Below, one piece after another: positions 16,617 to 17,675 of a stretch of 57,409 bases of DNA (position 1 is the first letter of the stretch; each line of letters opens with the position of its first letter). The stretch spans positions 1 through 57,409 of the forward strand of contig MHTR01000006.1 in assembly GCA_001823155.1 (NCBI GenBank). The letters run 5' to 3'. This stretch comes from Candidatus Wildermuthbacteria bacterium RIFCSPHIGHO2_01_FULL_48_25. GTDB taxonomy: Bacteria > Patescibacteriota > Minisyncoccia > Minisyncoccales > UBA10102. The notes under the pieces were generated by a model that was not told where the DNA came from, did not search any database, and worked only from the letters and a program-made list of their open reading frames with translations. Position numbers and translations under genes: made by a program.

Positions 16617-17675
16617 ATGCGAATTCTCTCTATTGAAACATCATGCGATGAGACGGCTATAGCCGTTGTGGAAGCGAAACTAGGGCGCTTTGAGGTTCTT
16701 GCCCATGTGGTTGCTTCTCAGGTGAAACTCCACGCGAAATACGGGGGAGTGTACCCCACGCTCGCGAAAAGAACACACCAGAAGAATCTTCCTATTGTTT
16801 TGGCAAAGACCCTTAAGGAAGCGGGTTCTACCAAAGCAGCGTGGAAACCCTTAGACGCGATAGCGCTTACCGTGGGCCCGGGCCTAGACCCTTGCCTGTG
16901 GGCAGGAATTGAGTTTGCCAAAACCTTGGCACAGGAGTGGGACGTTCCTATCATCCCCGTAAACCATATCGAAGGACATCTCATTATTTCCCTATTGGCA
17001 TCAAACTTGGCCCGGCCAAGTTTGCTCAAACTTGGCCGGGCCAAGTTTCCCGCGGTTGCGCTGATTGTGTCTGGCGGGCACACACAGTTGATTCTAGTAA
17101 AGGGAATTGGGAAATACAAAATCCTGGGGGAAACACGGGATGACGCGGCAGGAGAATGCTTTGATAAAACCGCGCGGATCCTGGGACTTCCGTATCCCGG
17201 CGGCCCTGCCATTGCTAAACTTGCAGCCCTGCCTAAGCTTCGCTTAGGACGGGGTCCTAAGCGAAGCTTAGGAATTAGCTTGCCGAGACCGATGCTACAC
17301 TCCAAGGACTACGACTTTAGTTTTTCGGGGTTAAAAACCGCGGTGCTGTATGACTACCAGTCTCGAAGTCCTAAAATACGGAAATCCAAAGAATACATCC
17401 AGGCAATGGCAAGGGAAATCCAGCAAGCGATTATTGATGTTCTGGTTGAGAAAACCATGCGCGCAGCCGAGGAGTTCGAAGTAAAAAGCATTGTTCTTGG
17501 CGGCGGCGTTGCGGCGAACAAGGAACTCCGCAAACGATTCAAAGGCGCGCTCATGGCCCCTTCAGAGCTCTGCACAGACAATGGATTAATGATTGCTCTT
17601 GCAGGATATTTCAATAGAGCAAAGAAAACAAAGAGGTATGGCCGCATTGTGTCTCAACCCAATCTCACCATATAA
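16617..17675 (+). CDS. tsaD: tRNA N6-threonylcarbamoyladenosine synthase TsaD (Kae1/Gcp family)
   Basis: MRILSIETSCDETAIAVVE, VNHIEGH, SGGHTQL, DDAAGECFDK, YPGGP, DFSFSGLKT and CTDNGLMIA motifs. The track ORF begins at 16503; ATG 16605 is an alternative start. Confidence 0.9.
   Translation: MRILSIETSCDETAIAVVEAKLGRFEVLAHVVASQVKLHAKYGGVYPTLAKRTHQKNLPIVLAKTLKEAGSTKAAWKPLDAIALTVGPGLDPCLWAGIEFAKTLAQEWDVPIIPVNHIEGHLIISLLASNLARPSLLKLGRAKFPAVALIVSGGHTQLILVKGIGKYKILGETRDDAAGECFDKTARILGLPYPGGPAIAKLAALPKLRLGRGPKRSLGISLPRPMLHSKDYDFSFSGLKTAVLYDYQSRSPKIRKSKEYIQAMAREIQQAIIDVLVEKTMRAAEEFEVKSIVLGGGVAANKELRKRFKGALMAPSELCTDNGLMIALAGYFNRAKKTKRYGRIVSQPNLTI
17004..17047. repeat. double palindromic repeat inserted in frame in tsaD
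   Basis: AACTTGGCCCGGCCAAGTT-TGCTCA-AACTTGGCCGGGCCAAGTT. Encodes ..SNLARPSLLKLGRAKF.. in the loop between the HxEGH and SGGHT motifs. Confidence 0.85.
17232..17272. repeat. perfect 18-bp-stem palindrome inserted in frame in tsaD
   Basis: CCTAAGCTTCGCTTAGGA-cgggg-TCCTAAGCGAAGCTTAGG. Encodes ..LPKLRLGRGPKRSLG.. between the YPGGP and LPRPM motifs. Confidence 0.85.

Follow-up and report, generated by a model that had tools for sequence, protein, structure and literature searches.

Monomers and dimers of repetitive extragenic palindromes (REPs) have been found in frame inside known genes of several bacteria, sometimes two to an open reading frame (ORF); the short Rickettsia elements RPE-4 and RPE-6 are among these REP-type cases, and intragenic REPs form a minority class (PMC3733652). 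REPINs consist of conserved inverted units around a less conserved spacer that still pairs, exist in single and double forms, and are proposed to spread through a hairpin-specific single-strand transposase acting in trans (PMC3116915). Classical Rickettsia palindromic elements (RPEs) have a length of ~150 bp (Ogata et al. 2000, summarised in PMC10969869), with CGTC as their reported terminal sequence (PMC3733652). A single template-switching event can also produce perfect stems and compensatory changes at several bases (Monttinen and Loytynoja 2022, PMC8794818). Here, we describe two perfect palindromes that lie in frame in the tsaD gene of a Candidatus Wildermuthbacteria genome, a member of the candidate phyla radiation (CPR), on a single 57-kb contig that we analyzed at its full length (MHTR01000006.1, 57,409 nucleotides; hereafter, the window). 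These elements fall outside every described family and are of the same general, REP/RPE-like kind. In-frame REPs and RPEs are already known; as the preliminary description of this locus had supposed, our literature search found no report of in-frame palindromic repeats in CPR genomes.

Two palindromes in the loops of TsaD

The tsaD coding sequence occupies positions 16617-17675 on the plus strand. The mechanical ORF opens at 16503, and the likely true start is MRILSIETSCDET, a start shared by orthologs. Family membership was judged by Kae1/TsaD/Qri7 sequence relatedness, the HxxxH metal motif and the SGGH motif. The protein matches PF00814, as do all homologs, and aligns to the E. coli TsaD chain (4wq5/4ydu) with E = 1e-74; H117 and H121 (catalytic) and SGGHT are invariant. 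Both palindromes lie within this one open frame. At site 1 (17003-17048, plus strand), two perfect 22-nt arms (17003-17024 and 17027-17048, 100% complementary) enclose 2 nt, and the symmetry is nested, with two inverted 19-nt units, AACTTGGCC[C/G]GGCCAAGTT (17004-17022 and 17029-17047), around the spacer TGCTCA; the palindrome codes for S129-F144 (SNLARPSLLKLGRAKF). At site 2 (17232-17272, plus strand), 19-nt arms (17232-17250 and 17254-17272, 100% complementary) enclose 3 nt and contain two inverted 17-nt units, CCTAAGC-TTC/GAA-GCTTAGG (17232-17248 and 17256-17272), around the spacer ACGGGGT, coding for P206-G219 (PKLRLGRGPKRSLG). The preliminary description had placed the palindromes at 17004-17047 and 17232-17272, in frame, and had read the peptides NLARPSLLKLGRAK and LPKLRLGRGPKRSLG from them, and both the positions and the peptides are correct. 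The RNA is predicted to fold at -39.3 kcal/mol (z = -8.3) at site 1 and at -34.5 kcal/mol (z = -7.1) at site 2.

Neither chance nor a technical artifact is a convincing source of this symmetry. The window contains seven perfect hairpins with stems of at least 12, whereas first-order Markov simulations gave none above 11, and the 19-mer AACTTGGCCSGGCCAAGTT has five matches at up to three mismatches in the window versus 0.05 expected. Amplification chimeras can in general create inverted repeats, and nothing further speaks for an artifact of assembly or amplification. The protein sequence is identical at both sites in independent NCBI, JGI, ENA and Logan assemblies (P0001, P0121, P0122), and related elements are found in independently assembled relatives. 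Because four independent assembly sources give the identical protein, the palindromes are not an assembly artifact, and we give practically no credence to this explanation or to chance.

In an alignment with E. coli TsaD structures from the PDB, the window protein is longer by 10 residues at site 1 and by 9 at site 2, which agrees with the E. coli loop sequences given in the preliminary description and with the ~10 extra residues estimated there. A metagenome scan for TsaD loci gave, among the matches listed, orthologs that were all at most 56% identical, and closer relatives were added one by one; the loci gathered for the segment-length comparison (numbered L001 and onwards) hold 76 TsaD genes. 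In 23 distinct orthologs of non-CPR type, the two segments have fixed lengths of 20 aa (HxEGH to SGGHT, site 1) and 16 aa (YPGGP to PRPM, site 2), and the same segments in the window TsaD measure 30 and 25 aa. Both inserts map to low-confidence surface loops of the AlphaFold model, which has an overall predicted local distance difference test score (pLDDT) of 88.9: residues 129-144 are coil between helix 117-126 and strand 146-152 (block pLDDT 60), and residues 206-219 are coil (block pLDDT 65).

Close relatives differ at these positions. L099 has a palindrome at neither site and a site-2 segment of 17 aa, and L098 has a single 21-nt hairpin per site, TGCCTAAGCC[T/A]GGCTTAGGCA, its two segments measuring 23 and 17 aa. 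Set against these single units, the window doublet at site 2 corresponds to a single unit plus 24 nt. If orthologs lacking the palindromes had loops of the same length and sequence, the segments would be native sequence that is palindromic by chance, and the loops of L099 and L098 differ from those of the window. Together with the segment lengths and the occurrence of the same arms at other sites (described below), these relatives support the proposal that TsaD loops carry two in-frame palindromic repeat insertions. Within the CPR, site 1 is a case of turnover and not of simple gain: relatives without the palindrome have other repetitive sequence of similar length there, and L094 and L099 have AAATTYC-type heptamer repeats (segments of 29 and 28 aa). 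In comparison with CPR relatives, the palindromes at tsaD site 1 and in the prepilin peptidase gene pilD replace variable loop sequence of similar length, and neither is a simple net insertion. Tandem heptamer repeats in place of palindromes (AAATCTC, TCCAATT, AAATTCY and similar, read through in three frames) were also observed in TsaD loops of L018, L033, L013, L016, L094 and L099, at site 1, site 2 or both.

Different families repeatedly occupy the same TsaD loops. In 57 distinct CPR-like orthologs, we counted 37 perfect hairpins (stems of at least 10) versus 1.45 expected, 34 of which lie in three loops (reference residues 58-80, 122-146 and 198-224) that together cover 21% of the protein's length; among the 23 canonical orthologs, there are two versus 0.6 expected. 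The TsaD loops are thus recurrent hot spots, and the palindrome families in them differ by lineage. L012, a distant CPR relative, has a family of its own, with AAAGTGGCAGAGAAC-A-GTTCTCTGCCACTTT in tsaD site 2 and the compensated variant AAAGTTGCCAGAGAAC-T-GTTCTCTGGCAACTTT in a second ORF of at least 150 aa (copies at 3301-3331 and 5428-5460), and lineage-specific palindrome families seem common. Outside the CPR, a perfect 16+16 palindrome in L066 (CTGCCCTGGCCGACCG/CGGTCGGCCAGGGCAG, 10557-10588) sits exactly at site 2, leaves the canonical non-CPR loop length unchanged and looks like an in-place conversion.

Copies in other genes and in intergenic spacers

Counting the two tsaD sites, there are six copies in the window, four of them inside ORFs (one ORF being unconfirmed). 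A second site-1 doublet (2607-2650, minus strand) lies in frame in pilD (2137-2907), where it codes for TWPDQVIHNLAGPSL; it has one G/T mismatch and the spacer GTGGAT. The pilD loop varies among orthologs; in L100, the closest relative, it is similar in length and not palindromic. The spacer between the convergent recG and glycosyltransferase (GT) genes is occupied by a composite palindromic element of ~100 nt (14749-14848). This element includes the single-unit variant AACTAGGCCGGGCCTAGTT (14771-14789), preceded by GTGGAT as in the pilD copy, and its DNA fold is predicted at -37.9 kcal/mol (z = -9.9). A perfect, loop-less 44-nt palindrome with the center GAATTC (41003-41046) is intergenic and adjoins a tRNA gene (41051-41133, minus strand); it is made of CCTAAGCC/GGCTTAGG half-units that match the single hairpins of L098, and its predicted fold has -32.7 kcal/mol (z = -8.8). 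The sixth copy is a perfect 18+2+18 palindrome, CCTTGGTCGGGCCAAGGA / TCCTTGGCCCGACCAAGG (47136-47173, minus strand; fold -37.8 kcal/mol, z = -8.1), which has 15 nt (CTTGGTCGGGCCAAG) in common with the unit of pilD; it is in frame within the hypothetical ORF 46894-47466, where it codes for SLGRAKEVLGPTKE. This ORF has no Pfam match and is only a putative coding sequence. A separate 14-bp perfect hairpin straddles the pilD start codon (window 2889-2920; L100 4610-4641). It is kept, loop included, in L100, whose PilD is ~75% identical, and is probably a terminator of the upstream pilin gene or a regulatory stem.

The elements are dispersed over coding and non-coding sites, and related strains vary in their presence or absence and in their single or double form. 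The 17-mers of site 2 are found at 100% identity, with other spacers, at four further places in related genomes: tsaD site 1 (L002-L004), the recG-GT spacer (L001-L004), the ValRS-PrsW junction (L003) and tsaD site 2 of L096, whose TsaD is ~65% identical to that of the window. The spacers between the 17-mers are ACGGGGT, ATTCAAT, ACGCCGT, ATGCGTAT and AGAT, and pairing reaches into each of them, leaving 1-5 bases unpaired. Site 1 of tsaD in L095 bears the site-2 element of L001/L002, and L092 has AACTTGGCTAAGCCAAGTT-type doublets in both TsaD loops. In-frame palindromic repeats occur in unrelated genes, namely tsaD (twice), pilD and ORF 46894-47466 of the window, recG (L001/L002) and ArgRS (L011). 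One Ca. Wildermuthbacteria metagenome-assembled genome has the exact 19-mer twice, once in frame in ArgRS and once between adk and map. Across 185,579 species-representative genomes, a collection apparently without the source genome, the exact 19-mer is present in only seven stretches and at most twice per genome, the remaining stretches being single conserved coding sites in Opitutae and Comamonadaceae. Viral contigs gave one single-unit match to the 17-mer, and a search of host proteins with a composite query of the palindrome-encoded peptides gave no candidates.

Variation is visible even between nearly identical strains. In L092 and L099 the recG-GT spacer is empty, with the two stop codons lying almost next to each other; in other relatives it holds three different elements, with other palindromes in L001/L002 and in L095. 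L003 and L002 are 99.5% identical over 5.4 kb, yet only L003 has an extra element at the ValRS stop, and this element is absent from L002, L004, the window and L092. In recG, L001 has a single hairpin and L002 an inverted doublet, the extra arm of which reuses flanking bases and is reverse-complementary to the L001 single unit, and in TsaD the single units of L098 correspond to doublets in the window. L001 and L002 are 98% identical overall, with differences clustered around the palindromes and one heptamer array. A strain-variable recG loop in L002 (1489-1530) is a GAAATTC-type heptamer array that L001 lacks. Between L001 and L002-L004 (98-99.6% identical), the differences are mostly short patches on palindromes or heptamer arrays in which flanking synonymous sites have changed too, which suggests small recombination tracts or local hypermutation at the loops. 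We considered the L001/L002 swap at tsaD site 1 as proof of transposition and rejected it; its flanking synonymous sites have diverged, which points to a recombination tract.

Genes differ in the frame in which they read a shared stretch of DNA. The AACTTGG unit, which has no stop codon in any frame, is read in three of them (NLAxPS, KLGxAK and TWPxQV). In the CCTAAG unit, TAA or TAG closes two of the three frames. All of its coding copies are in the P-K...L-G frame, with a unit period of 21 or 24 nt, and its non-coding copies include a period of 25, a pattern that fits a filter against stop codons. These readings bear on the possibility of protein-level selection on the inserted peptides, for instance as a PKxxLG motif or as a surface that contacts TsaB/TsaE or tRNA, with palindromy being incidental. 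Such selection could account for the recurrence of PKxxLG-x-PKxxLG at site 2 in many orthologs and for a loop length that is roughly kept within the clade. However, it would not predict one DNA being read as three unrelated peptides or palindromy that is perfect at all three codon positions, and close relatives have unrelated sequences in place of the peptides, which lie in loops modeled with low confidence. We therefore regard protein-level selection as extremely improbable; in TsaD, the encoded peptides probably have no specific role and are carried along as passengers.

The long palindromes of the window and its close relatives are all perfect, without G:T positions, except for the one mismatch in the pilD copy. 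The symmetry also takes in spacers and flanks specific to each copy, down to 0-5 unpaired central bases (none in 41003-41046), and sequence variants are themselves symmetric, with GCC-C-GGC changed to GCT-A-AGC in one unit and GCC-G-GGC changed to GCT-T-AGC in its partner. These features favor a copying process, because selection on a hairpin needs no central pairing and would tolerate G:U. The hairpins might nonetheless be functional cis-elements of tsaD under structural selection, acting in mRNA stability, in translation pausing or as a DNA binding site: their predicted folds are very stable, their position is kept across orthologs with apparent compensatory changes, and the units are good candidate sites for binding of a dimeric protein. 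We consider this very unlikely, as the hairpin is absent at one or both sites in close relatives (L099; L094 at site 1), families interchange between the two tsaD sites, the elements themselves are also found in unrelated genes and in intergenic positions, G:U-type pairs are missing while symmetry extends through a center that cannot pair, and no Rfam family matches the palindromes. Two further readings were set aside. The cores (GGCC, AAGCTT, CCTAGG, GAATTC, CCWWGG) resemble restriction sites, and no site is common to all families; a DNA-uptake sequence was rejected, as none of the 6-10-mers in the window shows strong over-representation and the palindrome motifs are almost confined to the elements.

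Relation to described repeats and probable origin

REP dimers and REPINs are a closer match than RPEs. Like REPs and REPINs (Di Nocera et al. 2013, PMC3733652; Bertels and Rainey 2011, PMC3116915), the tsaD-type elements are short units, often in inverted pairs, with an intergenic preference between convergent genes, strain-to-strain differences in occupancy and in-frame copies, and their doublets combine conserved inverted units with a variable spacer that retains hairpin potential, as in REPINs. They differ in lacking a GTAG or CGTC terminal tag, in having units that are perfect (REPs are imperfect) and slightly shorter (17-19 nt versus about 20-40 nt), in the length of the doublets (41-49 nt versus 71-110 bp for REPINs) and in their CPR host. 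REPs are defined as extragenic, whereas most of the window copies lie in ORFs. REPs also number hundreds per genome, whereas tsaD-type units occur two to five times in 57 kb, and also across related genomes; the ceiling of two exact 19-mers per species-representative genome argues against a very high copy number.

The preliminary description had likened the palindromes to RPEs, and this likeness holds for their behavior. Both are dispersed palindromic repeats that lie in frame in unrelated housekeeping genes, at tolerated positions where they add a peptide, and no associated transposase is known for either. The likeness does not extend to membership: the tsaD elements measure 46 and 41 nt and add ~15 aa each, compared with about 100-150 bp and a peptide of 30-50 aa for RPEs, and no copy has a CGTC end by direct reading, as distinct from alignment to an RPE consensus. 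RPEs also form ten families with conserved peptides, whereas the tsaD elements are nested perfect palindromes that appear unrelated to them in sequence. MITEs, or miniature inverted-repeat transposable elements, that make in-frame fusions (ERIC, BOX and Nezha; PMC10969869) are likewise small non-autonomous repeats with intergenic and intragenic copies. However, MITEs have terminal inverted repeats around a non-palindromic core and target-site duplications, and we found neither: the elements are palindromic throughout, and comparisons of filled with empty sites show no duplication.

With moderate confidence, we propose that the palindromes are REP/REPIN-like short palindromic repeats that are retained where they are in frame, stop-free and structurally tolerated, and that owe their perfection to fold-back copying. 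The basic unit would be a 17-19-nt hairpin and the usual form an inverted doublet of 41-49 nt, its short spacer included. Several related families, with the outer stems (A/C)CTTGG...CCAAG(T/G), CCTAAG...CTTAGG and CTAGG...CCTAG, would circulate in the Wildermuthbacteria-like CPR lineage in both intergenic (often between convergent genes) and intragenic positions. Inside genes, a copy would survive only if the frame is kept, no stop codon is introduced and the loop tolerates the added residues; in TsaD, the tolerant sites would be three surface loops, two of which are used in the window. Perfect arms would be made and maintained at the DNA level by fold-back or template-switch copying of one arm from the other, which would also convert single units into doublets, and new sites would be seeded by a copy-and-paste step. 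Candidates for the seeding step are a hairpin-recognizing single-strand DNA transposase acting in trans, as proposed for REPINs, and template switching or recombination between copies. For spread to non-homologous sites, a hairpin-specific transposase of this kind would be the leading candidate.

Several observations weigh against this proposal. A Pfam scan of 40 window ORFs found no transposase of any kind, including no REP-associated tyrosine transposase (RAYT, IS200/IS605-type). Copy number looks low by the exact 19-mer count given above, and two Wildermuthbacteria-group loci, 31 kb together, are almost devoid of such elements. Filled and empty sites show no target-site duplication and no common target motif, and the GTAG or CGTC tags that define REPs are absent from all copies read. 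The swap at tsaD site 1 between L001 and L002, judged by its diverged flanks, is a homologous-recombination import and not a fresh transposition. Finally, the unrelated perfect palindromes at the same loops of distant CPR lineages could have originated in place, without mobility.

The alternative is a purely local origin, in which template-switch (fold-back) errors arise in tolerant loops without any mobile element and copies are shared by descent or recombination. Template switching is a documented mechanism (PMC8794818) that creates perfect reverse-complement repeats in one step, and it fits the symmetric spacers, the extension of palindromy into copy-specific flanks, and the conversion of single units to doublets. 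The recG doublet of L002 is a case of this kind: it repeats the L001 unit in inverted orientation, reuses flanking bases and resembles a local inverted duplication. Local template switching would also suit the many CPR lineages that have unrelated perfect palindromes at the same three TsaD loops, the palindromes in pilD and at tsaD site 1, which replace loop sequence of nearly the same length, and the L066 palindrome, which lies at site 2 without a change in length. However, template-switch mutations act locally and have been described for RNA genes, not for protein loops. Identical 17-19-nt units lie at non-homologous sites (tsaD sites 1 and 2, tsaD and pilD, coding and intergenic positions, and ArgRS of L011), and units are 100% conserved between genomes whose TsaD proteins are ~65% identical and whose surrounding codons have diverged. 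Local template switching copies nearby sequence and therefore cannot explain identical units at non-homologous sites. We thus consider a wholly local origin unlikely and favor REP/REPIN-like repeats in which fold-back copying would account for the perfection of the arms.

Gene context and meaning for CPR genomes

The window has type IV pilus genes in two separate clusters (at about 1.7-11.8 kb and 47.9-56.1 kb), along with genes for FtsH, ribonucleotide reductase, IF-2, gyrase A and RecG, and its gene order is conserved with Ca. Wildermuthbacteria contigs. It holds 18 tRNA genes in 57 kb, and these were the only Rfam matches in the window at gathering thresholds. Just upstream of tsaD, a 12-bp hairpin (16458-16485) overlaps the end of a tRNA gene and has counterparts in L001 (4931-4958), L092 (9834-9861), L094 (2788-2815 and 7390-7415) and L043 (8931-8962). 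Its stem covaries among relatives around a constant center, AACTGCTT, which is also found in hairpins after other genes, and it may be a distinct functional stem-loop. Five intergenic regions (7469-7549, 9287-9407, 11798-11883, 17692-17773 and 42996-43077) are each bracketed by an inverted pair, ATCCCGTTAGAAAC ... GTTTCTAACGGGAT(G), with 10 matches versus 0.4 expected. The proximal copy at ValRS abuts the start codon (ATG at 17772), and the remaining pairs look similarly placed; the pairs could form a 5'-UTR hairpin that masks the start region, or a paired operator.

Lineage-specific insertions, so far unexplained, are a known feature of CPR proteins. The tsaD case suggests that at least some of these are encoded by short palindromic repeats, or by heptamer arrays as in relatives, with fast turnover at permissive loops, and such insertions would then be by-products of DNA dynamics and not adaptations. 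For annotation and structure prediction, palindrome-encoded segments can be recognized in the DNA and could be treated as dispensable. Our results also extend in-frame REP/RPE-like elements to a phylum of ultra-small genomes and offer a compact model (41-49 nt, perfect, with nested symmetry) for repeat copying without an obvious transposase, and the strain-level polymorphisms are potential fine-scale population markers. More tentatively, an active lineage-wide process in CPR/Patescibacteria may make and spread perfect short palindromes and heptamer tandem arrays and continually overwrite permissive protein loops, an idea that we hold as possible and short of probable. The process could be template switching in repair-poor genomes, an unrecognized hairpin-specific enzyme, or both. 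If it exists, it would be a major origin of the lineage-specific insertions that typify CPR proteins, and essential genes like tsaD would carry fast-turnover 'selfish' segments that differ between strains 98-99% identical.

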